DNA of 64,000 bases from an uncultured Clostridia bacterium (GTDB taxonomy: Bacteria > Bacillota > Clostridia > TANB77 > CAG-508): contig CAKPJK010000001.1 of the NCBI GenBank assembly GCA_934162615.1, forward strand, positions 29,754-93,753, in the 5' to 3' direction. Shown here one piece after another: positions 4,881-27,258 of the stretch. A model generated the notes under the pieces. The model searched no databases. It worked only from the letters and a program-made list of their open reading frames with translations, and had not been told where the DNA came from. The number at the start of each line of letters is the position of its first letter. Position 1 is the first letter of the stretch. The position numbers and the translations under genes are program-made.

Positions 4881-4894
4881 AATAAGAGAGGAAA

Positions 4895-5755: not shown

Positions 5756-5768
5756 AAAGGTTGATTAA

Positions 5769-6284: not shown

Positions 6285-6330
6285 ATTAGGGATAATTATA
6301 ATATATCAAAAAAAGAATAAAAAAGTCAAT

Positions 6331-7653: not shown

Positions 7654-7654
7654 T

Positions 7655-8377
7655 TTATTTTTCTCTTTTTCTTTCTATTTTATATTTTTTTCTATTTAAT
7701 GATAATTTACATATTAAATTTAAATGTCTAAAACCATCTTGTATAGTTTTTAAATGAGGTTTTTTATCTCGTAAGTCTTTTTTTAATATAGTTGGAACCT
7801 CAGTCATTTTTAAATTATTAATTTTTGCAATTATTATCATTTCACTTGCGTATTCCATTCCAAGATGAGATAAATTTAAATTAGTTATGCTTTGTGTTTT
7901 ATAAGCACGTAATCCACAATGGTAGTCCTTTATAGGTGTGTGAAATAATAAATTTGCAAAATCAGATAGAAATTTTACGCCTATTTTGTGAGATAAAGGC
8001 ATGGCACCTTTTTCAATACCACCTTTAAATCTGTTTCCAACTACTAAATCATAGTTGTTATGTAAATTTTTTAAAAATCCTTCTATATGATAAAAGTCAT
8101 AACTTCCATCAGAGTCACCCATTATGCAGTATTTGCCATATGCGTGTTTAGTACCGTTTATTAATGTGGCTCCATAACCTTTTTCTTTGCAAATAACAAC
8201 TCTTGCACCATTTTCTTTTGCTATTTTTACACTATTATCTGTGCTATTGTTGTCTGATACAAGTATTTCTGCATTTAAATTTTTGTCTTTAATGCATTTT
8301 TGTATTTCTTTTATGCAATATTCCAATGTTTTTTCTTCATTTAAACATGGTAATATAAATGTATATTCTTTTTCCAT
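7655..8377 (-). CDS. Family 2 glycosyltransferase (polyprenyl-phosphate sugar synthase-like)
   Basis: ILPCLNEE..., SDNNSTDNS, GYGATL and GDSDGSYD (DxD-like) motifs. 240 aa, no TM. Confidence 0.85.
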   Translation of the reverse strand: MEKEYTFILPCLNEEKTLEYCIKEIQKCIKDKNLNAEILVSDNNSTDNSVKIAKENGARVVICKEKGYGATLINGTKHAYGKYCIMGDSDGSYDFYHIEGFLKNLHNNYDLVVGNRFKGGIEKGAMPLSHKIGVKFLSDFANLLFHTPIKDYHCGLRAYKTQSITNLNLSHLGMEYASEMIIIAKINNLKMTEVPTILKKDLRDKKPHLKTIQDGFRHLNLICKLSLNRKKYKIERKREK

Positions 8378-8567: not shown

Positions 8568-8659
<92 letters not shown>

Positions 8660-8733: not shown

Positions 8734-8823
8734 GGAGATGTACCCAAGTGGTGAAGGGGACTGTTTGCTAAACAGTTAGGTCCCGAAAGGGGCGCGGAGG
8801 TTCGAACCCTCTCATCTCCGCCA
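8734..8823 (+). tRNA. tRNA-Ser (anticodon GCU), CCA encoded
   Basis: GGAGATG acceptor stem, anticodon stem-loop ACTGT-TTGCTAA-ACAGT, long variable arm, GGTTCGAACCC T-loop, 3' GCCA. Confidence 0.9.
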
Positions 8824-8834
8824 ATAGGCTTAAG

Positions 8835-8866
8835 GTACTGGTATTGAAATATATCAGTACTTTTTT
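8835..8866 (+). terminator. Terminator after the tRNA pair
   Basis: GTACTG...CAGTAC stem followed by TTTTTT. Confidence 0.6.
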
Positions 8867-8937: not shown

Positions 8938-8966
8938 TTGAAAAATAAAAAAAAATAAGTTATAAT
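8938..8966 (+). promoter_or_regulatory. Sigma-A type promoter ahead of the pilin-like genes
   Basis: TTGAAA (8938-8943), 17-nt spacer, TATAAT (8961-8966). Confidence 0.45.
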
Positions 8967-8996: not shown

Positions 8997-9350
8997 GTGC
9001 ATAAATTAAAAAAGATATTTTTTATAGTAATTACAAATATATTTATTATATCAAATATATTTAATGTAACTTTCGCATACATAAATCCGGGTGACTATAA
9101 GCCATCTGAAGTAACACAATCAGATTACCAAACTGCGTTTACCAAAGCAGGAGTTGTGTTGGGTGCAATTAGAAATGTAAGTGTAGTTGTATCAGTAATT
9201 GTTTTAATGGTAATAGGAGTTAAATATATAATTGGTAGTGTAGAAGAAAGAGCAGAATACAAAAAAACAATGATTCCATATATTATTGGATGTGTATTAG
9301 CTGTTTCCGGTACAACTCTAGTATCATTTATATATAATGCAGTAAAATAA
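8997..9350 (+). CDS. VirB2/TrbC-like T4SS pilin candidate, paralog 1
   Basis: GTG start. Signal peptide ending VTFA, then a two-TM hairpin with charged loop: VVSVIVLMVIGVKYIIGSVEERAEYKKTMIPYIIGCVLAV. Topology typical of VirB2. Confidence 0.6.
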   Translation: MHKLKKIFFIVITNIFIISNIFNVTFAYINPGDYKPSEVTQSDYQTAFTKAGVVLGAIRNVSVVVSVIVLMVIGVKYIIGSVEERAEYKKTMIPYIIGCVLAVSGTTLVSFIYNAVK

Positions 9351-9356
9351 AAGTAG

Positions 9357-9875
9357 GTGAAAATAGTGAGAAAGAAAGTATTTATAATATTTTTTTTGAT
9401 ATTTGTATTATTTCCAATAATATCTAATATAGATATAGTACAAGCACAATCATTTTCTACATCAGGACAGAGTCAATCATCTAACACCAATAATGGCAAG
9501 ACAAGTACTAATGGAAGTACTAATAAGGGGTCAAACTCATCAGCGGGATCAACGAGTACAGATTCTGGCACATCACTTTCAGATGTAATTTCTGGTGGAG
9601 ATTCATTTATTTCAGATGGTAAAGAGGGTTCTGCTCAAATAAACAAATGGCAATTGGAAGGAGTTTCTTCAAGTATATATAATATTTTATTAATATGTGG
9701 TGTTATAGTGGCGGTAATAATTGCTTCAGTTTTAGGAATAAAATTTATGTTAGGTTCGGTAGAAGAAAAAGCAGATATCAAGGCAGCTATGGTTCCATTT
9801 ATAATAGGATGTGTTGTTGTATTTGGAGCATTTGGAATATGGAAAATTGTAGTTACAATTGGAAATGATTTTTAA
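9357..9875 (+). CDS. VirB2/TrbC-like pilin candidate, paralog 2, with S/T/N/G-rich insert (start 9357 or GTG 9366)
   Basis: Signal peptide ending VQA. About 45 aa of low complexity (SGQSQSSNTNNGKTSTNGSTNKGSNSSAGSTSTDSGTS). Same hairpin motif GIKFMLGSVEEKADIKAAMVPFIIGCVVV. Confidence 0.6.
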   Translation: MKIVRKKVFIIFFLIFVLFPIISNIDIVQAQSFSTSGQSQSSNTNNGKTSTNGSTNKGSNSSAGSTSTDSGTSLSDVISGGDSFISDGKEGSAQINKWQLEGVSSSIYNILLICGVIVAVIIASVLGIKFMLGSVEEKADIKAAMVPFIIGCVVVFGAFGIWKIVVTIGNDF

Positions 9876-9949
9876 ATAAGTTTTTAAAGTTTACTTAGAA
9901 AACTAGGTAATTTTTTATATAAAATATAATAAAAAGGGAGGAAATCAAA

Positions 9950-10300
9950 ATGAAAAAAACAATGAAAATACTTGTAACAGTATTAATTGCACTTATATTA
10001 GTAACTTTTTGTAGTAGTGTATTTGCTGCTGAATTATCACCTTCTGATTTGGATTCAAAAATTAAATATGGTGAATCTGATGCTTTAGCAAATAAGGCAG
10101 GACAAATAATGGGTATGATAAGAAACATAGCAGTAATTGCTGCAGTTATTATATTAATGGTATTAGGTGTTAAATACATGTTAGGTTCTGTAGAAGAAAA
10201 AGCAGAATACAAAAAATCATTTATGCCATTAATAATAGGTATTATATTAGTTGTATCTGCAACAGCAATTGCATCATTTATATTTAACATGGCAAAATAA
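9950..10300 (+). CDS. VirB2/TrbC-like pilin candidate, paralog 3
   Basis: SD GGGAGG. Signal peptide ending VFA. Hairpin AAVIILMVLGVKYMLGSVEEKAEYKKSFMPLIIGIILVV. Confidence 0.65.
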   Translation: MKKTMKILVTVLIALILVTFCSSVFAAELSPSDLDSKIKYGESDALANKAGQIMGMIRNIAVIAAVIILMVLGVKYMLGSVEEKAEYKKSFMPLIIGIILVVSATAIASFIFNMAK

Positions 10301-10317
10301 TTAAAGAAAAATTTAAA

Positions 10318-10350
10318 AAGAATAATTCTTTCAAGAATTATTCTTTTTTT
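10318..10350 (+). terminator. Strong rho-independent terminator after the pilin genes
   Basis: Near-perfect palindrome AAGAATAATTCTT/AAGAATTATTCTT followed by a T-run. Confidence 0.7.
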
Positions 10351-10538
10351 GGTTTAAAACGCCAAAAGTAAACATCCCTATATAAAATATTTAAAATGCT
10401 TAAAAAACGATATTACAAAAATGTTACAAATATATTAAATTTCCACTTTTTTTGCTAAAAACTATACAATTATCCACAGGTTTATGTTATAATATATATT
10501 GTATAATTATAATAAGAAAGATACGGAGGAAAAAGAAA

Positions 10539-10892
10539 ATGCAAAGCTATGAAATTCCAAGAAATTATAAAGGAGAAGGAAGAATATTATATATATTTTC
10601 TACAAAAGGATTAATATATACATGTGCTGGAGCTGGAATAGGACTAATATTTTATTTTATATTAAAAATGCTTGGTTTTTCTATGGTTGGACTTATAATT
10701 ACTCTAATATTTGCAGTAATAGGATTTGTAATAGGGACATTAAAAATACCAGAATCTTCTTCAATGGAGTTAACAAGAAAAACGGGTGGAGAAAATATAG
10801 ATGATGTAATTATAAGATGGATTAAATTCAAGAAAAATGGCAACAAGATATATGTATATAAACCAGAGGAGGAAACAAAAGATGGAAAGTAA
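10539..10892 (+). CDS. PrgI/TcpE-like (VirB3-like) small T4SS membrane protein
   Basis: True start is ATG 10539 (SD GGAGG); the track ORF starts upstream at an alternative codon. Begins MQSYEIPRNYKGEGRILYIFSTKGLIY, then two TMs, as in PrgI-family proteins that precede VirB4. Confidence 0.55.
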   Translation: MQSYEIPRNYKGEGRILYIFSTKGLIYTCAGAGIGLIFYFILKMLGFSMVGLIITLIFAVIGFVIGTLKIPESSSMELTRKTGGENIDDVIIRWIKFKKNGNKIYVYKPEEETKDGK

Positions 10893-12117
10893 TCAATTAA
10901 TTAATTTATTAACAATAATATTAGGAATAATGATTGGAATTTTATGTATACTTTGTGTAACATTTTTAGTATTAAAATTAAAAAGCAGAGAACATAAAGA
11001 AAAAAAGGTTGTAAAACAACAAGAGGAAAATGCTAAAGTCAAAGCGAAAACACTTACACCACAAAATTATACAAAAGAATCAATATTTAAATTTATGGAA
11101 TTTGATAAAATTGATGATAATATGGTTATACAAAAAGGTGGAAAGAGATTTTTAATGGTTATAGAGTGTCAAGGTATTAATTATGACTTGATGTCTGGGC
11201 TAGAAAAAAATAGTGTAGAACAAGGATTTTTACAATTTTTAAATACTTTAAGATATCCAATACAAATTTATGTACAAACAAGAACAGTAAATTTAGGAAA
11301 CAGTATTAATACATATAAAGAAAGAGTTGATGATATTTCTAAGCAGTATGCTGAAAAACAAATGCAATACAATCAAAAAATTCGTTCTGGACAATATACA
11401 GATGAAGAGTTAAGTAAAGAAAAATATGAATTAATAAGACAAAGAAATTTGTATGAATATGGTATTGATATAATTAACAATACAGAAAGAATGAGCTTAA
11501 ATAAAAATATATTAAGTAAACACTATTATGTAATAATACCATATTATCCTGATGAAGCATCAAATGGAGCTTATCAACAAGATGAAATAACAAGTTTAGC
11601 ATTTTCTGAATTATATACAAAAGCACAATCAATTATAAGTTCACTTGCAGTTTGTGGAATAAATAGCAAAATATTAGATTCAACAGAACTTGCAGAATTA
11701 TTATATGTTGCATACAACAGGGATGAATCTGAAATGTTCAACTTAAGAAGAGCAATGAATGCTGGTTATGAAGATTTGTATTCTACAGCTCCAGATGTTT
11801 TAAATAAGAGAATGAAAGAACTTGACATAAAAATTGAACAAGATGCAATTAAGAAAGCAAATGAAACAATTTATGATGTAATTGAAGATAATGAAAAACA
11901 AAGAAAGATAAAACAAAAAGAAGCAGAATTAGATGAATTAATTGATCAAATGGCTAAAGCTCTAATTGAGGAAAATAAAAGATCTATAGGAGAAGATACT
12001 GCAGAGGCTGCTATAGAAAAGATAGATAAAGATAGCAAAAAGAAAACAAAAGAAGGAGGAGAAGAGGATGGCAAAAAAACAAAAACAACAAGAAGAAAAT
12101 CAACAAGAACAATTTAG
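10882..12117 (+). CDS. T4SS-associated membrane-anchored protein with coiled-coil/basic tail, function unknown
   Basis: ATG 10882 with SD GAGGAGG; overlaps the previous gene by 11 nt. N-terminal TM. The segment FLMVIECQGINYDLMSGLEKNSVEQGFLQFLNTLRYPIQIYVQTR resembles N-terminal regions of Gram-positive VirB4-type ATPases (from memory, unverified). No Walker A. Confidence 0.5.
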   Translation: MESNQLINLLTIILGIMIGILCILCVTFLVLKLKSREHKEKKVVKQQEENAKVKAKTLTPQNYTKESIFKFMEFDKIDDNMVIQKGGKRFLMVIECQGINYDLMSGLEKNSVEQGFLQFLNTLRYPIQIYVQTRTVNLGNSINTYKERVDDISKQYAEKQMQYNQKIRSGQYTDEELSKEKYELIRQRNLYEYGIDIINNTERMSLNKNILSKHYYVIIPYYPDEASNGAYQQDEITSLAFSELYTKAQSIISSLAVCGINSKILDSTELAELLYVAYNRDESEMFNLRRAMNAGYEDLYSTAPDVLNKRMKELDIKIEQDAIKKANETIYDVIEDNEKQRKIKQKEAELDELIDQMAKALIEENKRSIGEDTAEAAIEKIDKDSKKKTKEGGEEDGKKTKTTRRKSTRTI

Positions 12118-14029
12118 AGAATATAGAGAAGAAGATGTTTCAATATTAAAAAAGAAATCTATAAAAGAATTAATAGCTCCATCAGGAATAGATGCTTCAA
12201 ACATTGACCATTTAGAGATAATATCTAATACAAAAAGATATGCTCGTAGCTTTTTTGTATCATCTCTTCCTAGAATGTGTACATTCCCAGAATTATTTAG
12301 AGATTTATATATGTTTGGAGATACAAATACATCAATATATATAAATCCTATAAAAGAGGATAAATCTCAAAATGATTTAAATAGAGTCATAAATGAACTA
12401 GAAACAGAAAGAATTGTTGCAGCAGACAAAGGAAATATAAATAGGGAAAGTACAATTTCACAAAAAAGAATGGAGGCAGAGCAATTAAGAGATGAAATAG
12501 CAGCTGGATTTAATAAATTATTTGAAGCATCTATCATTTCTACACTTTTTGCATATAGTTTGGAGGATTTGGATAGATATACTAAGTTGTTATCTTCTGA
12601 AATGTCAAAAACATTAGTTGGAATTAAAACAGCATGGGGAATGCAAGAAGATGCTTTTAAATCTAACTTACCTTTTATGAATGACAGAATTAATAAAACA
12701 CATACATTTGACAGAAATTCAATGGGAACTGTATTTCCATTTACGACATCAGAAGTTGGACATCCTACAGGTGTTCCATTAGGGTTTAACAAACAAACAG
12801 GTACACCAATATTGTTTGATAATTTTCACTCATCACTTACAAACTATAATATGGTTATATTTGCAAAGTCTGGAGCTGGTAAATCTGTAACAATGAAAAC
12901 ATTGATTTCAAGGTCATCTGTTTTAATGGGAATTGAAAGTTTAGCACTTGATGCTGAAGGTGAGTATACAATTGTGGCAGAAAGTTTAGGTGGAATTAAT
13001 GTTGTAATAAGTCCAACATCAAAAACAGTTATAAATTTGTTTGATGTTGAAACTGAAATTATTAAAGATGAAATAACAGGTAAAGAAAGAGTAACTTTAA
13101 ATATAGAAAATAAGGTAGAGGATGTTACACAGGCTTTACTTACTATGGCTAGAGGTAGTACTCGTTCTGATGAAGTAAATGAATTGACAAAGCAAATTAT
13201 TGCAGAGTCTGTTGCAGAAGAATATGCGGCTTTAGGTATTAATAGTAATCCAGAAAGCTTGTATAAACAGTCTGCAGGAGTTATGAGAGGTAATATTTTC
13301 TCTAGGGAGAAAAAAGATATGCCTACAATTGGCTCTTGGTATAGAAGAATTCAAGGAAAGGCTAGGGAAAATACTAATTCAGACTATCAATATCATTACA
13401 GTTATTTATTAAAAGTTATGAAACAATACATAAGAGAATATGATGGACAAATGGCTTATTTTGATGGACAGTCAACTTTTGAGTTGTTAGAGGGTGCACC
13501 ATTTATAAACTTGGATATTTCTCAGTTGGAAGAAAGATTTGCAAGACCCCTTGCACAACAAATTTTACTTTCTTGGATTTGGGAAAAATTCGTTAAGAAA
13601 AATAGTGAAGACAGAAAAAAAGCTACACAAAAGAGAGTTTTAGTTGATGAGGCTTGGATGTTATTGCCATATCCTGAGGCTGTTGACTTTTTAAATAAGA
13701 TGGCTAGACGTGCGAGAAAAAGAAATGTTTCCTTGGCTATTGTTTCTCAAAGATTTCAAGATTTCTATGAGAAACCTGAGGCTCAAGCAGTTCTTACTTC
13801 TTCAGATACAAAACTATTTTTAGCACAAGATAAATCTGAAATACAATACTTAAAAGAGGTGTTTAAACTTTCAGAAGGTGAGGCTAACTTTTTGGTTACT
13901 TGCCAAAAGGGTGAGGGATTACTTAAAGTTGGTGCTGATTCGGCTATTTTAAAAATTATGCCGACTAAGAAAGAGTTTGAGTTTGTTGAGACAAACTTGA
14001 ATCAAATTGCAAAGAGAAATAATGCGTAA
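12068..14029 (+). CDS. virB4: VirB4-family T4SS ATPase (TrsE/TcpF/ConE-like)
   Basis: Walker A FAKSGAGKSVTMK, Walker B RVLVDEAWMLL (DEAW). 653 aa. Start overlaps the upstream gene by 50 nt; SD GGAGGAG. Confidence 0.9.
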   Translation: MAKKQKQQEENQQEQFREYREEDVSILKKKSIKELIAPSGIDASNIDHLEIISNTKRYARSFFVSSLPRMCTFPELFRDLYMFGDTNTSIYINPIKEDKSQNDLNRVINELETERIVAADKGNINRESTISQKRMEAEQLRDEIAAGFNKLFEASIISTLFAYSLEDLDRYTKLLSSEMSKTLVGIKTAWGMQEDAFKSNLPFMNDRINKTHTFDRNSMGTVFPFTTSEVGHPTGVPLGFNKQTGTPILFDNFHSSLTNYNMVIFAKSGAGKSVTMKTLISRSSVLMGIESLALDAEGEYTIVAESLGGINVVISPTSKTVINLFDVETEIIKDEITGKERVTLNIENKVEDVTQALLTMARGSTRSDEVNELTKQIIAESVAEEYAALGINSNPESLYKQSAGVMRGNIFSREKKDMPTIGSWYRRIQGKARENTNSDYQYHYSYLLKVMKQYIREYDGQMAYFDGQSTFELLEGAPFINLDISQLEERFARPLAQQILLSWIWEKFVKKNSEDRKKATQKRVLVDEAWMLLPYPEAVDFLNKMARRARKRNVSLAIVSQRFQDFYEKPEAQAVLTSSDTKLFLAQDKSEIQYLKEVFKLSEGEANFLVTCQKGEGLLKVGADSAILKIMPTKKEFEFVETNLNQIAKRNNA

Positions 14030-14053
14030 AGTATGTCAGGAGGTTTAAACTTT

Positions 14054-17000
14054 ATGAAGATTTTTCAAAATAAAAGTTTGTTTAAAAAGTTAATTATTAT
14101 ATTTTTGGTGATTACAATTTTTAGCTTTTGTATGCCTAAGGTTTCGAGGGCAGGTGATTTAGGAGGAAAGTTGCTAAACCCAATAATGTCATTTTTTGTT
14201 GCATTAGGTGATGGAACTATGACTATTATACAAAAAATGGTTTTACAAATTGATGAGAGTGTAATAAATATTGATTCTTCATCAAGTTTTTGGGCTAAAT
14301 TTATAGTTATAATTGCTGCGATAGCTGTTGTTTCCGTAATAGTAATTGCAACTGTAATGACTGCGGGTGCTGCCGATGCCGCCATGATTGGACTTGGCAC
14401 GGCGTTAAAAGGAATAACAGCAGCTGCAATAGTTATAGGGACAACGACTGTTACTTTTCCTATAACTACGCAAATAGTAGAGGGAATGCTGCCAGATAGT
14501 TTTATTTTACCACTGTATGAGGTAACACCTCAAGAAATTTTCTCTAATAAAATACCTTTGCTAGATGTCGATTTTTTTAATCCTATGGATGATCAAACGT
14601 ATACAAAAGCAGCAGAAACAAAAAAAGTTAAGGAAGATGATACAACAGAACATATACTTACTTATATAAAAGATGAATTAAAAAATAATTATGGTTATGA
14701 TGAGAAAAAAGCAGAGTCTATGAATATAGATGATAAAAATAGTGATCCTAGTAAATATGTACAAAAGAAATGGGATTATGATGGAAGAACATATGTGTTT
14801 GCATATTGTGAAGGAGAATCAGAGGACTATTTAGTTACTAGATATGAAAAGGACGGTAAGAATCCCCAATGGTTAAAAGACGAAGAGAATGATTCATCTA
14901 GCTATGGTAGAAAATTGACATGGAGTGATGGAAAAAACTCTGCATGGAGAAATGGAAATGCTGAGGTTAGTATAGAAGGTGAGGAAAAAACTGTAACAGT
15001 AAAAGATGAATCAAGTATTACAATTACGTCTACTGCTAAAGAGCTAAGAACAATTGTTGCAAATTGGTATAATATTTTAAGAGATATTGCATTAGTTACA
15101 TTATTATCTGTATTAGTTTTTATTGGTATAAAAATATTAATATCTAGTACTTCTGGAGAAAAAGCAAAATATAAACAAATGTTAGTAGACTGGTTAGTCG
15201 CAATGTGCTTGCTGTTTTTAATGCAGTATATTATGTCTTTTTCAAATATGTTAGTAAAAAAAGTTATTGAAGTTGTGGATACAACTAGCGTTTCAGCTAC
15301 TAAAGCTACAGAAATAAAAGAACCAAATATTTTTGTAATAACAGATAAAAATAAAGTTCAAAAAGCATATGAAGTTCTTATTGGAGATGGTGGAGAAGAA
15401 AATGCGTATTCTAAGTATTTCTTAGAAGCTGATTATTCAACTCCTGCTGTAAGTAAGAGCGATGCTGTAGCATTGGCATGGCCTGCAGAAAACTTTATGC
15501 AACAAGCTAGAATTAATGCGCAGTTAAGAGAAGTTAAACAAGATGCGGATGGTAATTATGACACTGATGACGTTAATGAAACATATGTTGCTATAGGATG
15601 GAAGCTGATTTATGTTGTTTTAGTAATATATACTGTAATATTTATTTTTACATATGTAAAAAGGGTATTATATATGGCATTTTTAACCATTATTGCTCCT
15701 TTAGTAGCTATGACATATCCAATTGATAAAATAAATGATGGAAAAGCACAGGCTTTTGACATGTGGTTTAAAGAATATATATTTAATTTATTAATACAAC
15801 CATTGCATTTAATTTTATATACGGTTTTAGTTGGCTCTGCAATGGAATTTGCAAGTAAAAACATTATTTATGTTGTAGTTGCCTTAGGCTTTTTAACACC
15901 AGCTGAAAAATTGATGCGTAGATTCTTTGGATTTGAAAAAGCACATACTCCTGGATTATTAGGGGGACCTGCTGGTGCAGCTATTATGATGAGTGGTATG
16001 AATAAATTATTAGGAAAAAGAAGTGATTCAAAATCTTCTGGTTCATCTTCAAATGGAGGTTCTGAAGATGGTGATGAGGATAAATCTAGTTTGAGGTTTA
16101 ATGATAATTTTGATAAAACAGGAGCATTTTTAGGCAAAGGACCTCAAGAACTTGAAAATAAATTGGAAAATAATAATGATGATCAAAAATTAATAGATTT
16201 ACAGAAACGAAAAGAAGAGGCAGAAAATGAAATTAAACAAAATGGTGCTGGAAAAAAGGAAGCAGAAAATGATTTAATTAGCATAAATAGTGAAATGAAA
16301 AAAATAAATGAATCTAAAAATGGTAAAGTAGAGCAAAGAGAAGGTGTTTCAAAAAAGGATGCTCTTCAGTTATCAAAATGGGATAATTTCAAAAGAACAA
16401 TAAAATTGGGTGGAAAATCATTGGCTAGAGCAGGAAGATATTATGGGCATAAGAAATTATCTAACGTTGGTAAAAAAATACAAAATTCTCATCCAGGTAG
16501 AACAATATTGAAATCGTATGGAGGACTTGCGGCTGGTACTGCTGGAGTTATTTTAGGAGGAATTGCTGGAGGAGATCCAACAAAGGCATTCCAATATGGG
16601 GTTGCTGGTGCTACAGGTGGATATAAGGCAATGGATGCTGTTTTACCAGAATTTGGATCAGACGAAGACTATAAACAGGCAAATGAATTAAGAAAAGAGA
16701 CTTTTTATGGTGATGAATATGATCAAAAGAAACTAGAGAAATATATAAAACATCAAAAACAAGACTATGATAATAGAGTACAAATAGAAACAGCTCTGGG
16801 AAGTAAAAAATCAGCAGATGAGTTTATAAAAAATGATATGGGCGAGTATATGAAGAATGGTGTTACTGATATAGACGAAATGATGACTTTAAATAGTATG
16901 GTACAAGATGGAACGTTTACAGATAGAAATATGGCTATTGCAACAAGAAAATATGCTAAGAGAGCTGGATCAAAAATTGGAAATATGAAACAAAAAGATC

Positions 17001-17137
17001 AAGATGAATGGCATAAGACATTTGCTAAAGAATTTAGTGAAAATCCTCGATTAAGAAAGGAAAATCTTGATGCTGATAAAGAAGCAGATAAAGTTATAAA
17101 ATTAACTAATACTTATTTTGATAGAATGAATGAATAA
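14054..17137 (+). CDS. VirB6/TrbL-like polytopic T4SS channel protein with long hydrophilic C-terminal domain (alternative start 14033)
   Basis: SD AGGAGG before ATG 14054. Signal peptide ending VSRA. At least 6 TM segments in the central region; coiled-coil Lys/Glu-rich C-terminus. Immediately downstream of virB4, as in Tn916 orf15 and ICEBs1 conG. Confidence 0.6.
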   Translation: MKIFQNKSLFKKLIIIFLVITIFSFCMPKVSRAGDLGGKLLNPIMSFFVALGDGTMTIIQKMVLQIDESVINIDSSSSFWAKFIVIIAAIAVVSVIVIATVMTAGAADAAMIGLGTALKGITAAAIVIGTTTVTFPITTQIVEGMLPDSFILPLYEVTPQEIFSNKIPLLDVDFFNPMDDQTYTKAAETKKVKEDDTTEHILTYIKDELKNNYGYDEKKAESMNIDDKNSDPSKYVQKKWDYDGRTYVFAYCEGESEDYLVTRYEKDGKNPQWLKDEENDSSSYGRKLTWSDGKNSAWRNGNAEVSIEGEEKTVTVKDESSITITSTAKELRTIVANWYNILRDIALVTLLSVLVFIGIKILISSTSGEKAKYKQMLVDWLVAMCLLFLMQYIMSFSNMLVKKVIEVVDTTSVSATKATEIKEPNIFVITDKNKVQKAYEVLIGDGGEENAYSKYFLEADYSTPAVSKSDAVALAWPAENFMQQARINAQLREVKQDADGNYDTDDVNETYVAIGWKLIYVVLVIYTVIFIFTYVKRVLYMAFLTIIAPLVAMTYPIDKINDGKAQAFDMWFKEYIFNLLIQPLHLILYTVLVGSAMEFASKNIIYVVVALGFLTPAEKLMRRFFGFEKAHTPGLLGGPAGAAIMMSGMNKLLGKRSDSKSSGSSSNGGSEDGDEDKSSLRFNDNFDKTGAFLGKGPQELENKLENNNDDQKLIDLQKRKEEAENEIKQNGAGKKEAENDLISINSEMKKINESKNGKVEQREGVSKKDALQLSKWDNFKRTIKLGGKSLARAGRYYGHKKLSNVGKKIQNSHPGRTILKSYGGLAAGTAGVILGGIAGGDPTKAFQYGVAGATGGYKAMDAVLPEFGSDEDYKQANELRKETFYGDEYDQKKLEKYIKHQKQDYDNRVQIETALGSKKSADEFIKNDMGEYMKNGVTDIDEMMTLNSMVQDGTFTDRNMAIATRKYAKRAGSKIGNMKQKDQDEWHKTFAKEFSENPRLRKENLDADKEADKVIKLTNTYFDRMNE

Positions 17138-17157
17138 AAATTAGGAGGACTATAATT

Positions 17158-18108
17158 ATGTATAATTTAATTAGATTTTTTAATCAAAACAGAAAGAAAA
17201 TTATAAAGATTATACTGATTATAGTCTTTATAATTGGAGTAATACAGGTATTGAATTTTATATCAAAAAGACAAAATACTTCAAATGTGGAAAATATTAT
17301 GACACAAAATATAAATTATGGGGATGAGGTTATTTCTTCTAAATCACCAGTAACAGGTAAATCAGTTTCAAAAACTGATTTAAAGAATGCATCTAATATA
17401 ATAAAACAATTTATTGATTACTGTAATAATGGTGATTTGGAATCGGCATATAATCTTTTAACTGATGAATGCAAAGAAGAAATGTATCCAACATTAAATG
17501 ATTTTAAAAATATTTATTTTAACTATACATTTGGAGGAGAAAAGAAAACATATACAATTGAAAACTGGCTAGATAATGTTTATCAAGTAAGAATTACTGG
17601 AGATATATTATCTACGGGAAAAATAGATAATACCGTAACAAAACAGGATTATGTAACGATAGTTGAACAAGATGATGGATATAAATTAAATATTAATAGT
17701 TATGTTGGAAGAAGTAAACCTAACAAAGTTACAAAAATAGATGATATAAAAGTAACAGTGACTCAAGTTGATTCTTATATGGATCATAAAGAGTACAATT
17801 TAATTGTAGAAAATAATTCATCTAATGATATTTTATTAGATACAGGTGATGATACAAAATCAATATTTCTATTAGATACAAATGATAAAAAGACATATTT
17901 TTTAAGTAATGAAATAATCTCAAACCAACTTATAGTACAAAGTAAATATAAAACAAGTTTAAAAATTAAGTTTGCAAATGCATATGCTTCAAGTAATTCA
18001 CTAAAAAATATCGTATTTACAAAAGTAGTGTTGAATTATGATGAATACAAAAATTTAGATAATAAAAAGCAATTTAAAGATTTTGAAGAATTAAAAATAA
18101 AAATATAA
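17158..18108 (+). CDS. Membrane-anchored T4SS accessory protein, possible NTF2-like/VirB8-like fold
   Basis: SD AGGAGG. N-terminal TM. IKQFIDYCNNGDLESAYNLLTDECKEEMY segment, typical of NTF2-like domain N-termini. Confidence 0.45.
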   Translation: MYNLIRFFNQNRKKIIKIILIIVFIIGVIQVLNFISKRQNTSNVENIMTQNINYGDEVISSKSPVTGKSVSKTDLKNASNIIKQFIDYCNNGDLESAYNLLTDECKEEMYPTLNDFKNIYFNYTFGGEKKTYTIENWLDNVYQVRITGDILSTGKIDNTVTKQDYVTIVEQDDGYKLNINSYVGRSKPNKVTKIDDIKVTVTQVDSYMDHKEYNLIVENNSSNDILLDTGDDTKSIFLLDTNDKKTYFLSNEIISNQLIVQSKYKTSLKIKFANAYASSNSLKNIVFTKVVLNYDEYKNLDNKKQFKDFEELKIKI

Positions 18109-18130
18109 AATTGATAAGGAGGGTAATATA

Positions 18131-21100
18131 TTGGAAAAATTTAAAAAGATATTAAAATCAATTTTTTCTTTTAAGTTAATAATTTTAGTAATAGTTATTG
18201 TATTAATTATATTTATTATATTATCTTCTGGTTTTTATTTTATAACTATAGATGATGGTGAATGGGAAGATGCAGAATTTGGAAATCCATCAAGTTATAC
18301 AGAACATGTTAGTGTTAGTGGAGAGACTGGATTAGCTGTTAGTAAGAGTGATTTGAAGACAACCGCATTAAAGGGGTTAAAATATACTGATGAACAAATT
18401 GCAAGTATGTCTGATGAAGAGGTTATAGAGAAACTTCAAATTAATCGAAAATTAAAGAAAAGTCCAAAAGTTAAAAGTTTAGATGAAGTTACACAAGCAG
18501 AATTATTATGGTGTATGAATGATGTTTATTCTAAATATTTAGATAAACCTGAAGAATTAGAAAAATTGTTGAATGCAGAAATAATAACTCAATATCCTGA
18601 TTTAGGTGATGCTGAGGGAAAACTGAATGGTATTATAAAATTTGAAAGACATAAAGAAGATGGTTCATCTGAATTTCTTACATATGTTGATTCAGGAACT
18701 TTTGACAAATATGTTAATGATGGAGATAGTAAGGCTTTAGATTATTTTACTTTAGACGATACGGGAAATGTTGTAATTGCTTCGATAAATACAACAACAG
18801 AAACTTTAGGTTTAAATGATAGCGAAGCGAAGATAAGTGATTTTACTGCAAATTTAAGTGAAGAAAATAAAAATGGTGATGGTAGTTATAAAAAAGTAAC
18901 TAAAAATGTTTCAAAACAGACAATATATTATAAAAACTATGTTCAGGATTATACATTACCGTTTAACTATTTATGGTCATTGTTAATTATTGGAGAAGAT
19001 AAAGAATTTGTAATGGAATTGGCTGAGTTAGCAGAAAATAGTGAAATTACAATTTCTATTTATGATAATATAACAACGAATACTAATACTGATGTTTATA
19101 CATATAAAAAAGAGACAAGAACGGATACATATGTAAGAGTTACTCCATCAACAACGTATGGAATAAAAAATGTTCCAACAAAAGGATATTGGTGGCCAGC
19201 AGATAAACTTACTGATGCTGGAGCTACAATTGGTGTTGATGATTGGAAAAATGATGCTGATTATGAGACAGATGAAACAGAATATAAGATTACCCATACT
19301 GTGAAGTCTGATATTAATGCGCCAACAATTGCTTTAACTAAGGCTAATGTATGGATTGTTGATTATAGTGTTGAGTATACGTATAAAGAGGCAGAAGTCG
19401 TATCAGATGATACAAATTCAAAGGAAGAAGAGGATACAGATTTTGTATTGGATTCAGATGCATCTGGAGATTCTGATAGTAATAGTGCTTTATTAAATTG
19501 TGAACATGCACAAGAAATGACAAGAAAAACAAGAAAATATATTGAAGATCATAAGCCAGATACGACAACTAGTAGATCATCTTTTTCAATAACTGGGACA
19601 AGTTCTGGAACGAATAGTAAAAAAGATAATTCGGTTTTTGATTCTGTAATTAAAGAAGATGTGAAAACAGATACAAATTCAAATTTATTACATCCTTCTA
19701 AAAAGGATGATACAACAAAAAGTGATTCAAGTAGTAGTAAAGAGGATGTACCGACTACTGTTCCGGAACCTCTTCTTACAGTACTACCTAGTTATGTAAG
19801 ATGCGATAAATATAAACATAAAATCGATAGAAAACAAACTACGACTTCAACAACAACACAACAAAGTTATGTTGCTCAAACACCTGTAAGTAATCCTAAG
19901 GATGATAAGGATGCAGATACTGATAATTTTGTTAAAATTTTATGTAACAAAAAACATAAAAAAGCAAAAAATTATCTAACAGATGGAACTACAACATCTT
20001 GGCTTTGGGAGATTATGAGTGTGAACTGTTCTGATAAGCTTATTGATTTAACAAAATATTTATTTTATAAAGCAACTGGTACTAATTTTGGAAAAAAAGA
20101 GTATGAATATACTGGATTGGAACCACCTGTTTCTGTTGATTATTCAAAATTTGTTGGTGATTATATAGTAAAAACAAACGATCCAAATGCTGCACCTGTT
20201 GTGAATGATAAATTAAAATTAAAAGCGGGGTTAGAGGTATGGCTTAGAGATGCAAGTACTCAAAAGGCTAATGCACTTTCTATTGTAGATAAGGTTTTTG
20301 AATGCCAAGAAAAATATAATGTTAATGCTATTTTCATTTATGCCTTTTTAAGAGACGAATCAGGAATTGGATCTGCAAACTCAACGGCAGTAAAACAAAA
20401 TAACTGGGGAAGTTGGAATGTTGGAGCATCATATCCATCACCACAAGAAAATATAGAAACAATAGCAAAAGGTATTTCGACAGGAAGTTTTTATTTTACA
20501 AAAGGAAATATATCTGTTGCATCTATAGGAAAAATTTATTGTCCTAATGAGCCGGCTCATCCTGCTCAAGGGGATTTATGGATTGAAACAGTTCAAAAGT
20601 TTATGACACAATTATATGGAGCAATGGGAATAAGTGTATCTACAGAAACTAGTGGAGGAACTGTTGCAGAAGGTGGAGTTGGAACAATAGGTGTTTACCA
20701 GTCTGGAAGTGGATCTAAGTTTAACTTATATTTGCAAGGAAGTGGAGCACCTTGGGCAAATGAGGATTATGGTAATGACCATAGTATGGCTAAAGCAGGA
20801 TGTGGGCCAACTGCTGCTTCAATAATATCAAGTGGATATAATGCAAGTATTAATCCTAGTACATTTAGAGCTAAAATGATTCAATTATATGGAACGGGAA
20901 ATCATTCATCAGCAACATTAATTGAAAAAGCATTTAATCAATTGGTTCCTGGAGTTAAGACAGAAACTACGACTTCATTTGACGAGAATAAAATAAGAAA
21001 TTGTTTAAAATCTGGAGGTCAAGTTTGGCTTGTAGTATCTCATTGTAAATATACATCGGGGGCACATTGTATTGCACTTATTGATTATAATTCAAGTAAT

Positions 21101-21220
21101 GATCAGGTTTATGTGGCACATGGAACTGCTAAGTCAAGACCATATGGATGGGATTCATTAAGTTATATAAAATCTTATTTTAAATCAGGAGATGGAGTAT
21201 TGTATATAGGAGGAAAATAA
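18131..21220 (+). CDS. Large T4SS-associated cell-wall hydrolase (glucosaminidase-like plus C-terminal Cys-peptidase C39-like/CHAP-like domain)
   Basis: TTG start with SD AGGAGGG. N-terminal TM. FIYAFLRDESGIGS..NNWGSWN resembles the FlgJ/LytD glucosaminidase motif. The C-terminus has AKAGCGPTAASIISSGY (catalytic Cys) and SGAHCIALIDY (His). Confidence 0.7.
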   Translation: MEKFKKILKSIFSFKLIILVIVIVLIIFIILSSGFYFITIDDGEWEDAEFGNPSSYTEHVSVSGETGLAVSKSDLKTTALKGLKYTDEQIASMSDEEVIEKLQINRKLKKSPKVKSLDEVTQAELLWCMNDVYSKYLDKPEELEKLLNAEIITQYPDLGDAEGKLNGIIKFERHKEDGSSEFLTYVDSGTFDKYVNDGDSKALDYFTLDDTGNVVIASINTTTETLGLNDSEAKISDFTANLSEENKNGDGSYKKVTKNVSKQTIYYKNYVQDYTLPFNYLWSLLIIGEDKEFVMELAELAENSEITISIYDNITTNTNTDVYTYKKETRTDTYVRVTPSTTYGIKNVPTKGYWWPADKLTDAGATIGVDDWKNDADYETDETEYKITHTVKSDINAPTIALTKANVWIVDYSVEYTYKEAEVVSDDTNSKEEEDTDFVLDSDASGDSDSNSALLNCEHAQEMTRKTRKYIEDHKPDTTTSRSSFSITGTSSGTNSKKDNSVFDSVIKEDVKTDTNSNLLHPSKKDDTTKSDSSSSKEDVPTTVPEPLLTVLPSYVRCDKYKHKIDRKQTTTSTTTQQSYVAQTPVSNPKDDKDADTDNFVKILCNKKHKKAKNYLTDGTTTSWLWEIMSVNCSDKLIDLTKYLFYKATGTNFGKKEYEYTGLEPPVSVDYSKFVGDYIVKTNDPNAAPVVNDKLKLKAGLEVWLRDASTQKANALSIVDKVFECQEKYNVNAIFIYAFLRDESGIGSANSTAVKQNNWGSWNVGASYPSPQENIETIAKGISTGSFYFTKGNISVASIGKIYCPNEPAHPAQGDLWIETVQKFMTQLYGAMGISVSTETSGGTVAEGGVGTIGVYQSGSGSKFNLYLQGSGAPWANEDYGNDHSMAKAGCGPTAASIISSGYNASINPSTFRAKMIQLYGTGNHSSATLIEKAFNQLVPGVKTETTTSFDENKIRNCLKSGGQVWLVVSHCKYTSGAHCIALIDYNSSNDQVYVAHGTAKSRPYGWDSLSYIKSYFKSGDGVLYIGGK

Positions 21221-22482
21221 TGATTAACAAATTAAAGAAAATTATTATAATTTTATGTTTTATTATTGCCATTATAGTATTGATATTATTATGTTATTTA
21301 AAAATGAATGAAAATTATGATTCCAATATAACTAATAATATTGATGAAAATAGTTTTGATGTAGAAGTAGATGAAGAAATAATGGATACTTTGACAGAGG
21401 ATGAATTATTTAATGCAAAAAATTGTATTCAGTTATATGTGAATTATATAGCAGATAAAAACTATGACGCTGTTATGAGTGTATTAGATGAAAATTATAT
21501 AAAAGAGAATAATATTTCAGTAGATAATATAGAAAATAAAATAAAAAAATATAATGATAATAATTATTTTATTATTAGTAAAGCATATAAAAAAGAATTA
21601 ACATTAGATATTGTAAAATATTATATTAGTGGAAGTATATTTGATAATAAATTTTCTACTTCTGAACAGATTGATTGTACGGTTTTAATGGATAATGCAA
21701 ATAATGTATTTTCAATAGTTCCTGAGGATTTAAGAAATAATAGTAAATTTGAATTTAATGAATATATAAAATTAGATGCTAATAATTATTATAATAAAGT
21801 TGTATATAAAGCATATTCAAATGGAGATGTAATAAGTGAATATTTTAATTTATATAAAGATTTAGCAATTAATAATCCTAATTTGGCATTTCAATTGTTA
21901 GATTCTACATATAAAGAAAAAAGATTTAATAATTCTATAGATGAATATAAAAAATACTTGAAAGATATAGATGTTGAAAATATTTATTTATCTAAATTTT
22001 CTTGTAATATTTATAAAAATTATAATGAATATGTTGGAGTGGACAAAAATGGACTATATTATTTCTTTAGAGAAAAAACACCAATGAATTTTTCTGTAAT
22101 TTTGGATACATATACAATTTTATCAGATGATTTTAAAGAAACATATGATAAAGCAGATAATGAAAAGAAAATTCAAATGAATATAGATAGATTTGTTCAT
22201 ATGATAAATAATAAGGACTATAGAACAGCATATGGTTATATAGCAGATGGATTTAAAAACAATTATTTGGACACACAAGATAAATTTGAGAATTATATCA
22301 AAAATGAATTTTTTGAATATAATAATTTTGAATTTGATAGTATTGAGCAAAAGGGAAGTAACTTGTATACGTGTACGTTAACGCTTACAGATGCGACAGG
22401 AAATAGTAAAGATTTTAAAAAAATAACAATTATAATGCAATTAAATGATAATTACGATTTCAAAATGTCATTTAGTGTATAA
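21220..22482 (+). CDS. Membrane-anchored protein with two NTF2-like repeats (TcpC/VirB8-like candidate)
   Basis: ATG shares one nt with the upstream stop (TAATG). N-terminal TM. Two similar segments: NCIQLYVNYIADKNYDAVMSVLDENY and IDRFVHMINNKDYRTAYGYIADGFKNNY. Confidence 0.4.
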   Translation: MINKLKKIIIILCFIIAIIVLILLCYLKMNENYDSNITNNIDENSFDVEVDEEIMDTLTEDELFNAKNCIQLYVNYIADKNYDAVMSVLDENYIKENNISVDNIENKIKKYNDNNYFIISKAYKKELTLDIVKYYISGSIFDNKFSTSEQIDCTVLMDNANNVFSIVPEDLRNNSKFEFNEYIKLDANNYYNKVVYKAYSNGDVISEYFNLYKDLAINNPNLAFQLLDSTYKEKRFNNSIDEYKKYLKDIDVENIYLSKFSCNIYKNYNEYVGVDKNGLYYFFREKTPMNFSVILDTYTILSDDFKETYDKADNEKKIQMNIDRFVHMINNKDYRTAYGYIADGFKNNYLDTQDKFENYIKNEFFEYNNFEFDSIEQKGSNLYTCTLTLTDATGNSKDFKKITIIMQLNDNYDFKMSFSV

Positions 22483-22559: not shown

Positions 22560-23294
22560 GTGATGCCAATGATAGAAATAAAAAACATATCAAAAGAATA
22601 CAAAAAAAATAAAAAAGTAATAAATAATATTAGTTTAGAAATTAAAGATGGAGAAATATTTGGCTTTTTAGGACCCAATGGAGCCGGAAAAACAACTACA
22701 ATAAAAATGATGACAGGAATATTAGAAATAGATGAAGGTGATATTTTTATAGATGGAAAAAGTATAAAAGCAAATCCAATAGAAGCCAAAAGGCTAATTG
22801 GTTTGGTTCCAGATAATCCAGATGCATTTTTAAAACTAAGAGGTATAGAATATTTGAACTTTATGGCGGATATATATGAAGTTTCAACGGAAGATAGAAT
22901 TAAGAGAATAAAAGAATTTTCAGAAAAATTTGAAATAAATAATGTATTAAATAATAAAGTGGAAAGTTATTCTCATGGAATGAGGCAGAAATTAATAATA
23001 ATAGGTGTATTATTGCATAATCCTAAAAACTGGATATTAGATGAACCAATGACAGGGCTTGATCCAAAAGCTTCATTTGAATTAAAAAATATGATGAGAG
23101 AACATGCTAAAAAAAATAACACAGTATTTTTCTCAACACATATTTTGGATGTTGCAGAAAGATTGTGTGATAGAATTGGAATTATAGATAAAGGAAAATT
23201 ATTATTCGTAGGAACATATGAGGATTTGAAAAAAGAATTAAAAGAAAATAAATCATTGGAAGAATTATTTATGGAGATTGTAGAAAATGAATAA
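22560..23294 (+). CDS. ABC transporter ATP-binding protein
   Basis: Walker A GPNGAGKTTT, signature YSHGMRQK, Walker B ILDEP. Confidence 0.9.
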   Translation: MMPMIEIKNISKEYKKNKKVINNISLEIKDGEIFGFLGPNGAGKTTTIKMMTGILEIDEGDIFIDGKSIKANPIEAKRLIGLVPDNPDAFLKLRGIEYLNFMADIYEVSTEDRIKRIKEFSEKFEINNVLNNKVESYSHGMRQKLIIIGVLLHNPKNWILDEPMTGLDPKASFELKNMMREHAKKNNTVFFSTHILDVAERLCDRIGIIDKGKLLFVGTYEDLKKELKENKSLEELFMEIVENE

Positions 23295-24981: not shown

Positions 24982-25358
24982 TAAAAATATTATTTTAATT
25001 AATTAAAAGTTAATAAATAAAATACGAAATAATTAAATTTATTATTTAAATATTAAATAAATTAATTTTTATTTAAATAAATAGTTTTAATTTAATAAAT
25101 CAAAAAATAAAAATAATATTTATTTATTATTTTTATTTTTTTGAATTTTATAAAATAATAAATAATTAATTAATTTATTATTTTTTTATTTTATTTTTAA
25201 AATGTAATTGCAACAGAAAATAAAAAATAGAAAAATATTATAATATCTATTGCATAAATTAACTTTTTATGTTAATATATTTGTATTATATTTCAAACAA
25301 AATTTTATTAATTCGAATTAAGGCAAATCTGCCAAATTTTCAAGAAAAAGTTAAATAA

Positions 25359-26253: not shown

Positions 26254-26353
26254 AATTATAAAATTGTTTGAAATAAAAAAAATATTATATATTTGAAAAA
26301 ATTATAAATTTTTCAATATATAATATTTTTTTAAATTAATTATTTAATTTATT

Positions 26354-27067: not shown

Positions 27068-27258
27068 TTAAATCAATCCCTTCTTTATTAATATAACATA
27101 AAAATAAAAAAAAATAAATTATATTTATTAAAAATAATATAAATTAAAATTAATTAATTTATATTATTTTTAATTATTTAAATTTAATTTATAAAAATAT
27201 TAAAAAATTAACGTAACAAATAAAATTAAAATTAATAAAATAGTATAAGGTGATTATT

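Follow-up and report, generated by a model that had tools for sequence, protein, structure and literature searches.

Why would a chromosome carry the mating-pair-formation genes of a type IV secretion system (T4SS) beside a pair of tRNA-Ser genes, with none of the genes for recruiting, processing or integrating DNA next to them? The question is raised by an operon in a 64,000-nucleotide stretch (the window) of an uncultured Clostridia bacterium of the TANB77 lineage (contig CAKPJK010000001.1, positions 29,754 to 93,753, assembly GCA_934162615.1). A previous reading made from the letters without database searches (the sequence-only reading) had left two possibilities, a decayed integrative conjugative element (ICE) or a domesticated T4SS-derived machine, and had taken the intact genes to argue against decay. 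Our analysis effectively refutes the first possibility, whereas the second, together with the intact-gene argument, receives strong support from synteny, gene integrity, dN/dS (the ratio of nonsynonymous to synonymous substitution rates), the lack of polymorphism and flanks free of mobility genes. We consider it probable that the operon is a domesticated machine of mating-pair-formation class FATA (MPF_FATA) that would build a variable surface structure, either a VirB2 pilus or a contact apparatus, a function proposed here from the genes. On this reading the operon derives from a monoderm conjugative T4SS, is now fixed in the chromosome and inherited vertically, and has lost the DNA-processing and mobility genes at the locus.

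The operon consists of ten co-oriented open reading frames (ORFs) on the + strand, between 8997 and 22482. The same-strand block and the positions of its genes had been read correctly from the letters, although its proteins had been counted as 11. The junctions between the genes range from -50 to +22 nt, with two exceptions of 74 and 238 nt, both around pil3. The features of the block are these:

8997-9350, + strand: VirB2-like pilin 1 (pil1), 117 amino acids (aa); PF18895 with 38.3 bits, above cut-off
9357-9875, + strand: VirB2-like pilin 2 (pil2), 172 aa, with an N-terminal extension rich in Ser, Thr and Asn; PF04956 with 21 bits, below cut-off
9950-10300, + strand: VirB2-like pilin 3 (pil3), 116 aa; PF04956 with 46 bits and PF18895 with 44.9 bits
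10315-10348, + strand: perfect 16-bp inverted repeat followed by a T-run, directly 3' of pil3
10539-10892, + strand: PrgI/VirB3-like two-helix membrane protein, 117 aa (mechanical ORF start at 10452)
10882-12117, + strand: TrsD/TraC-like protein, 411 aa (mechanical ORF start at 10837)
12068-14029, + strand: VirB4 ATPase, the motor, 653 aa; NCBIfam and Pfam matches, Walker motifs
14033-17137, + strand: VirB6-like polytopic protein, 1034 aa; weak family matches, position and hydrophobic segments
17158-18108, + strand: membrane-anchored 316-aa protein, a candidate VirB8 analogue; AlphaFold models and Foldseek
18131-21220, + strand: anchored VirB1-like cell-wall hydrolase, 1029 aa; Peptidase_C39_2 and a weak glucosaminidase
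21220-22482, + strand: membrane-anchored 420-aa protein, whose C-end shares an NTF2-type domain motif with the 316-aa protein

The operon is widespread and is kept in place. In a scan of one genome per GTDB species, at least 551 species representatives presented a VirB4 relative, and the comparisons of loci described here refer to the best 80 of them (81-98% identity). VirB4 is intact, with both the KSGAGKS and the DEAW motifs, in 80/80 of these loci, and the order mnmG, rsmG, parA, parB, DUF4446 gene, two tRNA-Ser genes, operon and ABC transporter recurs across species. As an independent sampling, we also chose loci by ParB instead of VirB4, comparing them with the window's own proteins only; the operon was present in 15/15 of the relatives with at least 73% ParB identity and 10 kb of downstream sequence, and in none of the distant lineages. 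Among these 15 relatives there is thus no sign of the presence/absence polymorphism that the sequence-only reading had proposed to look for in related genomes. The median identity to the window is 84.4% for VirB4, 82.9% for MnmG, 84.5% for ParA, 71% for ParB and 62% for RsmG. Moreover, VirB4 is under purifying selection of housekeeping grade, with a dN/dS of 0.02-0.05 compared to 0.013-0.07 for MnmG, 0.017-0.08 for ParA and 0.02-0.12 for ParB. Its identity correlates with that of ParB (rho 0.78), AbcA (rho 0.81) and TrsD (rho 0.81), a co-variation as expected for vertical co-inheritance.

The mobility genes, for their part, were not found in the regions searched. According to Pfam, the 64 kb window contains no relaxase, coupling ATPase, integrase or replication gene. 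In the 80 loci, the ORFs without a counterpart in the window were clustered into 64 groups and then searched with Pfam; they turned out to be housekeeping genes and a few insertion sequence (IS) elements, and no relaxase was found among the non-syntenic ORFs within ~10 kb of these loci (25 of 69 families listed). Regarding the type IV coupling protein (T4CP), neither T4SS-DNA_transf nor FtsK was matched in the window or in the ~10 kb flanks of the 80 loci, and these flanks have no Walker-A ORF longer than 460 aa. The 3' end of the tRNA-Ser occurs a single time in the window, even when up to 3 mismatches are allowed, leaving no att repeat, and no long direct repeats bracket the operon. What had been noticed in the letters, namely no relaxase, T4CP or integrase at the block and no repeat of the tRNA 3' end, is therefore confirmed for the window, and the three kinds of gene were not found in the ~10 kb flanks of the 80 loci either.

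All of this bears on the view that the operon is a decaying remnant of an ICE integrated at a tRNA-Ser gene, which we now regard as extremely improbable. The operon does adjoin tRNA genes and does lack mobility genes, as that view would have it; however, all its genes are intact, the synteny is conserved and neither polymorphism nor an att repeat was detected. Decay is in effect excluded because VirB4 is intact in every one of the 80 loci, has a housekeeping-like dN/dS and varies in identity together with the flanking genes. Furthermore, a second subclade carries the operon 3' of a pair of M16 peptidase genes, at a site with no tRNA, and because of this the tRNA-Ser pair is a conserved upstream neighbour and not an integration site. 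In one member of this subclade, a complete metagenome-assembled genome (MAG) chromosome (L077), an IS21-type element (4331-6364, - strand; its IstA contains rve and Mu-transposase C domains and is accompanied by IstB) is inserted directly upstream of the operon; it is missing from a relative (L064).

A separate observation concerns the recent history of the segment. We compared the window with four near-conspecific metagenome contigs (L092, L093, L095 and L127), whose MnmG is 98-100% identical at the amino acid level and whose housekeeping DNA is 94-96% identical. The synonymous divergence of virB4 (12068-14029) from these contigs is 0.33-0.41, and that of mnmG (1195-3075) is 0.10-0.12; with respect to the next species (L001) the values are 0.37 for virB4 and 0.85 for mnmG. 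Because virB4 diverges more than mnmG from the near-conspecific contigs and less than mnmG from L001, the T4SS segment seems to have a history unlike that of its flanks, suggesting homologous recombination across species lines.

What does the operon encode, then? Its motor, VirB4, matches the NCBIfam CD1110 family with 208 bits (below the model cut-off of 325) and VirB4_plasma (Mbov_0397) with 192 bits, together with P-loop_TraG, AAA_10 and DUF87 of Pfam, all three above their cut-offs. It has an AKSGAGKS motif at residue 266 and a DEAW motif and is the sole Walker-A protein in the operon, just as had been read from its GAGKS and DEAW letters. The preceding gene had been described as encoding a membrane coiled-coil protein. 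This description is right as far as it goes, as the protein has an N-terminal membrane helix and a charged coiled tail, but it missed a separately encoded VirB4 N-terminal domain, which makes the protein TrsD-like. With hhalign, its profile could be matched to a fused VirB4 of 829 aa over residues 6-203 of the latter (probability 97.4%, E 1.3e-11), its orthologues have a precomputed match to the TraC-like PF26593, and there is a weak match to the N-terminal part of the Mbov_0397 VirB4; the local Pfam search gave no match, the assignment being that of hhalign and the precomputed PF26593. TrsD of pGO1 is the counterpart of such a separately encoded VirB4 N-domain (PMC12102498). Since its orthologues have an upstream stop codon, the true start of this gene is probably the ATG at 10882. 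The PrgI gene probably starts at the ATG at 10539, an orthologue being annotated at 117 aa. The PrgI/VirB3-like assignment made from the letters is borderline in the window itself (PF12666 with 25.7 bits, cut-off 27) and is borne out by the orthologues, 27/27 of which match PF12666 (best E 8e-8).

Each of the three pilins has a signal/anchor segment, as well as a hairpin of two helices and a GSVEEKA(E/D) loop, and pil1, pil2 and pil3 have an 80-nt hairpin-loop repeat in common. The three VirB2-like pilins proposed earlier are thus upheld, two of them above Pfam cut-offs and pil2 below, although with the same loop and hairpin. Arrays of 3-4 pilin genes are found in 65/66 of the loci with enough upstream sequence, and the remaining locus has six. 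The inverted repeat at 10315-10348 may be an attenuating terminator between the pilin and the machinery genes, a function suggested by its position and its T-run. We also looked for an invertible promoter or silent pilin cassettes and rejected them; apart from the terminator-like hairpin, the inverted repeats seen were AT-rich and due to chance.

The VirB6-like gene directly follows virB4 and encodes a protein with 7-9 hydrophobic segments and large, variable hydrophilic domains. It is polytopic, as had been read, and its length is 1034 aa, close to the ~1000 aa given; the family matches are weak only (pLS20_p028 with 26.9 bits, cut-off 150; MMCAP2_0566 with 24 bits). Residues 335-401 of this protein resemble a pilin hairpin (PF18895, 20 bits), with a (S)GEKAKYK loop as in the pilins, and the VirB6-like proteins of two distant relatives (L088 and L090) match PF18895 weakly too, so a pilin-like module could be built into the VirB6-like channel protein.

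The next gene encodes the 316-aa protein, in which AlphaFold predicts, besides a membrane helix, a domain of NTF2-like fold at ~residues 72-186 and a beta-sandwich at 190-315, with a pLDDT of 81.9 for the whole model and 78.3 for the isolated domain. When the isolated domain was searched with Foldseek, NTF2 domains were recovered (penicillin-binding protein MecA_N, 3b7c and 3kzt; TMq 0.45-0.58), and with the whole model YjhA-type beta-sandwiches dominate; no VirB8, TcpC or PrgL was among the top 50 hits of the NTF2-like domain. The 420-aa protein at the end of the operon has no family or PDB match, but its profile aligns with that of the 316-aa protein (hhalign, probability 85.6%, E 5.6e-6), and it probably repeats the NTF2-type domain, the number of repeats being estimated from the consensus. 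Both had been described as NTF2/VirB8-like anchored proteins; the NTF2 fold is predicted for the 316-aa protein, and these searches recovered no VirB8. The hydrolase between them is membrane-anchored; its N-module (~residues 120-654) is conserved, and its enzymatic C-end can be exchanged. It had been taken for a glucosaminidase plus Cys-peptidase, and the second half of this holds in the window (Peptidase_C39_2, 35 bits, above cut-off); the glucosaminidase match is weak there (15 bits, E 0.038) and solid in the orthologues. A sequence search with the hydrolase against the PDB gave nothing useful.

In contrast to the constant motor, the parts of the machine exposed at the surface are hypervariable. 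The median identity to the window is 41-47% for the pilins (range 32-70%), 40% for VirB6 (29-64%) and 32% each for the hydrolase and the 420-aa protein; in the pilins and VirB6, identity does not follow that of VirB4 (rho -0.15 to 0.33). The dN/dS of the pilins is 0.17-0.69 (pil1 0.17-0.37, pil3 0.27-0.69). This variation reaches the strain level: in the four near-conspecific contigs VirB4 is 96-98% identical, while the pilins are 57-83% and VirB6 is 91, 41, 64 and 53% identical, and in 2/4 of these contigs the VirB6 DNA can be aligned only in patches of the membrane core. The hydrolase behaves similarly, since compared with a strain whose VirB4 is 92% identical its N-module is 39% identical and the C-ends cannot be aligned. 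Among 24 orthologues, in which one protein may have more than one domain, the C-ends carry NlpC/P60 (13/24), phage tail lysozyme (8/24), Peptidase_C39_2 (7/24), glucosaminidase (6/24), CHAP (4/24), M23, M15_4 and phage lysozyme (3/24 each), and Hydrolase_2, GDSL and Amidase_5 (2/24 each). Because the motor is invariant while the exposed modules are exchanged even between strains, the combination points to a structure that meets a variable partner outside the cell. Since the cassettes of pilins, VirB6 and hydrolase domains vary at strain level, they also provide a ready marker of partner, phage or antibody specificity.

With regard to origin, an exhaustive search with VirB4 among 1.84 billion cluster representatives revealed an isolated protein: one representative at 65% identity, and then full-length relatives at 41% or less. 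The relative at 41% has the same split into a TraC-like protein and VirB4, and one such contig has a T4CP (PF02534) and a phage-type integrase upstream. Those at 36-40% lie behind DUF6094-SNF2-dnaN or RadC/methylase-helicase-dnaN modules, which we take to be typical of conjugative elements, and those at 34% keep the order pilin, PrgI, TraC-like, VirB4, VirB6-like and peptidase. Among the relatives whose source is named, the nearest come from Clostridia MAGs, a Peptostreptococcaceae MAG and Heliorestis. Because the relatives at 41-34% show the split TraC-like/VirB4 and a like gene order with a pilin, this architecture, with its VirB2-like pilin, characterises a sub-branch of the monoderm T4SSs, and most likely the Clostridial clade domesticated an element of that sub-branch, as the gene orders suggest. 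In view of their dnaN context, which resembles that seen in the CPR (candidate phyla radiation), a Patescibacteria origin of the 36-40% relatives was considered and rejected, as the wider gene content and the Clostridia-named relatives indicate mobile elements of Clostridia. Three of these loci (L086, L087 and L089) have a dnaN of their own, for the DNA polymerase III beta clamp, directly upstream of pilin-size, PrgI-size and TraC-like-size genes and virB4, with DUF6094/SNF2 or RadC/methylase-helicase genes adjoining; a sliding clamp on a putative conjugative element is unusual.

How the machine could work can be proposed by analogy. In T4SSs, VirB1-like enzymes open the cell wall, VirB3, VirB4, VirB6 and VirB8 form the membrane translocon and VirB4 acts as pilin dislocase, and the T-pilus of Agrobacterium forms without VirD4. 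By these roles, the genes of the operon would suffice for a channel driven by VirB4 and a filament of VirB2, and none of them would serve DNA recruitment or processing. The ancestor of a large clade of low-GC, small-genome gut Clostridia would have kept only the envelope-spanning machine. The anchored hydrolase would open the cell wall; PrgI/VirB3, the TrsD-like protein, VirB4, the VirB6-like protein and the NTF2-type anchored proteins would form the membrane channel; and VirB4 would pull the VirB2-like pilins out of the membrane and polymerise them into a surface filament or contact structure. The promoter-like site before the pilins and the hairpin after pil3 would hold the pilin in excess. 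The variable partner outside might be another bacterium, the host mucosa or an antibody, or a phage, and the machine would most likely mediate cell contact and possibly molecule exchange, transfer of its own element being improbable. Pilus formation, cargo and partner are all projected here from the established roles of other T4SSs.

Several points weigh against this proposal. To our knowledge, formation of a VirB2-like pilus has not been demonstrated in any monoderm. The family scores of the VirB6-like protein are far under the curated cut-offs, and searches for VirB8 homology of the two anchored proteins, made with their profiles against the PDB, were empty. Three loci (L036, L038 and L060) are without the three distal genes, those for the hydrolase and the two NTF2-type proteins; because they lack them at the locus, these proteins are either dispensable or encoded elsewhere. 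At ~12000-15000 in each of these loci, the VirB6-like gene is directly followed by the ABC transporter, and their sources include goat omasum and rabbit ('Lapin'). The surface variability could equally reflect phage or antibody pressure, with no role in cell-to-cell exchange. Finally, a T4CP or relaxase may be encoded elsewhere in the genome, as our searches covered the window and the ~10 kb flanks, and distal T4CP genes are common, Patescibacteria included (PMC12102498).

This last point leads to the possibility that the operon serves conjugation after all, as a shared mating channel for the chromosome or for integrative mobilisable elements, with T4CP and relaxase encoded elsewhere. The operon has the full set of channel components of Gram-positive conjugation systems, T4CP genes are often far from virB4 (PMC12102498), the nearest VirB4 relatives are element-borne, and the synonymous divergence suggests that the segment recombines between species and hence that DNA is exchanged in the clade. 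However, searches of the 64 kb window and of the ~10 kb around the operon in the 80 VirB4-selected loci yielded neither gene, constraint at housekeeping level and universal presence are unusual for a transfer function, and in Patescibacteria the system is essential but its distal T4CP is not (PMC12102498). We therefore consider conjugation unlikely. Signs of recombination between species could also be expected of a ComB-type DNA uptake (competence) system, whose gene content is likewise without T4CP and relaxase, and small-genome organisms may scavenge DNA; but ComB crosses an outer membrane, which monoderms do not have, no operon-linked competence genes were seen in any locus examined, and the essentiality of the Southlakia T4SS is independent of ComEC (PMC12857230), which makes uptake very unlikely in our opinion.

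The exchange of hydrolase ends suggests still another function, a contact-dependent weapon or feeding device delivering variable hydrolase domains or other cargo into neighbour bacteria, in the manner of bacteria-killing T4SSs or of phage tail lysins. The conserved N-module with enzymatic ends of different bond specificities, swapped among close relatives, would fit such a device, and in Southlakia epibionticum the peptidase and lysozyme genes adjoining virB4 are essential for epibiotic growth (PMC12102498). Against it, no immunity gene or toxin-like cargo was found in the operon, the hydrolase is membrane-anchored and the known killing T4SSs need a T4CP. Moreover, multi-domain VirB1-like hydrolases are normal in Gram-positive T4SSs, where they act on the cell's own wall (PrgK, TcpG, TraG). 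We regard delivery of this kind as doubtful, and a domesticated machine for a variable VirB2 pilus or contact structure remains our preferred reading.

The operon lies among housekeeping genes. The window is low in GC (~27%) and begins with mnmG, rsmG, parA, parB and a DUF4446 gene, followed on the minus strand by a GT2 glycosyltransferase gene and a 440-aa ORF; in relatives, mnmE is directly upstream of mnmG. Then come, in order, the tRNA-Ser pair, a terminator-like hairpin, a promoter-like site, the operon and the ABC transporter, so that the housekeeping flanks recognised in the letters (parB, GT2 and tRNAs on the 5' side, ABC transporter on the 3' side) are as described. The rest of the window contains housekeeping and sporulation genes and two giant surface proteins. 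The features between the glycosyltransferase region and the first pilin are:

8568-8659, + strand: tRNA-Ser(tga), from ARAGORN and Rfam, conserved upstream neighbour
8734-8823, + strand: tRNA-Ser(gct), from ARAGORN and Rfam, conserved upstream neighbour
8832-8863, + strand: terminator-like hairpin followed by a T-run, 3' of the tRNA pair; a pattern match from a consensus scan and reading of the sequence
8938-8966, + strand: promoter-like TTGAAA-17-TATAAT, 11/12 matches, 31 nt 5' of the first pilin start

The same tRNA-Ser pair precedes the operon in 11/20 of the related loci scanned. The hairpin at 8832-8863, a match to a pattern, would separate tRNA transcription from the operon. The promoter-like site is likewise a pattern in an AT-rich region, where such matches are not enriched over shuffles. 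The mnmE-mnmG-rsmG-parAB genes are the usual origin-flanking cluster of Firmicutes, and the whole region around the operon has positive GC skew, with the operon on the matching strand; because of this gene order and skew, the operon is probably origin-proximal and co-oriented with replication, dnaA lying outside the window.

Other features of the window deserve mention on their own. The minus-strand pair at 6331-8377, between the DUF4446 gene and the tRNA-Ser pair, is formed by the GT2 glycosyltransferase gene and the 440-aa ORF, which has no family match; it is present in 0/80 of the species-representative loci and, among the near-conspecific contigs, in L092 and L095 and not in L093 and L127, and it looks like a strain-level indel of a surface-glycan module adjoining the T4SS. 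On the other side, the region 22560-27100 is extremely AT-rich (GC 17-19%) and includes the ABC ATPase/permease pair, whose place next to the operon on its downstream side is conserved in many species, together with an N-terminally truncated fragment of a PD-(D/E)XK transposase family (25605-26201) and, on the - strand (26354-27067), a membrane protein that has a DnaJ domain and a low-complexity tail rich in Asn. A 1441-aa fusion of two BadF/BcrA-type activase ATPase domains with DUF2229 (CoA-enzyme activase) is encoded at 28440-32765 (- strand) and is kept with 81% identity in L038 and L060. The first giant surface protein (46750-55386, + strand; 2878 aa) has SdrD_B, SpaA, DUF11 and CarboxypepD_reg repeats and a C-terminal membrane anchor, and the second (56291-64000, + strand; more than 2570 aa) extends past the window end; both are further candidate adhesins in a small genome.

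We have found no description of this locus in the literature, and its place among known systems is best seen by comparison. It resembles the conjugative T4SSs of the MPF_FATA class (CTn2/CD1110, pGO1 Trs, pCF10 Prg/Pcf, pCW3 Tcp and Mycoplasma ICE): CD1110 is the best VirB4 family, the pilins match Mbov_0395, the VirB6-like protein weakly matches pLS20_p028 and MMCAP2_0566, and PrgI, a bifunctional hydrolase (like TcpG and PrgK) and the TrsD-type split (like pGO1) are all there. Unlike them, the locus is without T4CP, relaxase, integrase, att site and replication gene, the operon is fixed, syntenic and constrained at housekeeping level in hundreds of species instead of patchy and mobile, and VirB4 is at most 41% identical to its nearest element-borne relative. 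VirB4-driven channels without a coupling protein are known in Bordetella Ptl, Brucella VirB and Helicobacter ComB, which serve toxin export, effector delivery and DNA uptake; however, these are diderm systems with a VirB7/9/10 outer-membrane core, do not form an order-wide core set and have no sequence affinity to the operon beyond VirB4. Within TANB77 itself, a Tad (type IVc) pilus cluster has been described (PMC11680825) that is also a conserved surface-filament locus with a divergent pilin-like array in uncultured small-genome gut Clostridia, and through which TANB77 has been linked to cancer immunotherapy response; given the TANB77 assignment of the window, it may occur in the same organisms. 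That cluster is composed of CpaB, TadZ/CpaE, a CpaF/TadA ATPase, TadB/C and Flp/TadE-type pilins, and no operon protein matches the CpaF/TadA, TadB/C, CpaB or TadZ/CpaE families. Since the 'conserved pilin' published for TANB77 belongs to this Tad cluster, which is another kind of machine, the idea that our operon is that locus was rejected.

The closest described system is the T4SS of the Patescibacteria/CPR (Saccharibacteria TM7x and Southlakia epibionticum; PMC7427843, PMC12102498, PMC12857230). It has TrsD and VirB4, VirB3, VirB6 and divergent VirB2 arrays, no relaxase and an origin-proximal location, and it is essential for epibiotic growth (PMC12102498, PMC12857230). Both systems are monoderm and MPF_FATA-derived, with a separate TrsD-like protein and VirB4, PrgI/VirB3, a VirB6 or VirB6-like protein, a divergent array of VirB2-like pilins and peptidoglycan hydrolases near virB4, and with no relaxase at the locus; both are chromosomally fixed near an origin-region cluster and vertically inherited, in reduced-genome hosts that are hard to cultivate. 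In contrast, the host here is a spore-forming Clostridia of ~1.4-1.7 Mb, complete MAG chromosomes of relatives measuring 1.57-1.70 Mb, and not an ultrasmall CPR bacterium, the neighbours are mnmG-parAB-tRNA-Ser instead of dnaA/dnaN, and there are two NTF2-type anchored proteins, while VirB8-like proteins are mostly undetected in CPR. The likeness is one of design, gene content and fixation; essentiality and epibiotic life are known for Patescibacteria only. According to a review of December 2025, the only Gram-positive T4SSs in which VirB2 pilins are found are those of Patescibacteria, which are considered unique among monoderms for their likely pili and growth requirement (PMC12857230). What is new here is that the Patescibacteria type of co-opted T4SS design appears as a core locus of a large Firmicutes clade. 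It is conceivable, as a tentative extension to which we give limited weight, that this is a second independent conversion of a T4SS into an indispensable pilus-forming contact organelle, now in Firmicutes, and that its carriers, like Saccharibacteria, depend on partner cells to which they attach physically or with which they engage in exchange, which would explain their resistance to cultivation, or else that the Clostridial lineage is sister to, or donor of, the Patescibacteria T4SS. Beside the Patescibacteria system, the operon adds to the known range of non-conjugative monoderm T4SSs. Having a clear outgroup among mobile elements, it lends itself to comparative work in which domestication is dated and dissected, and for an abundant gut lineage that is uncultured it provides a concrete lead, at the molecular level, as to lifestyle.

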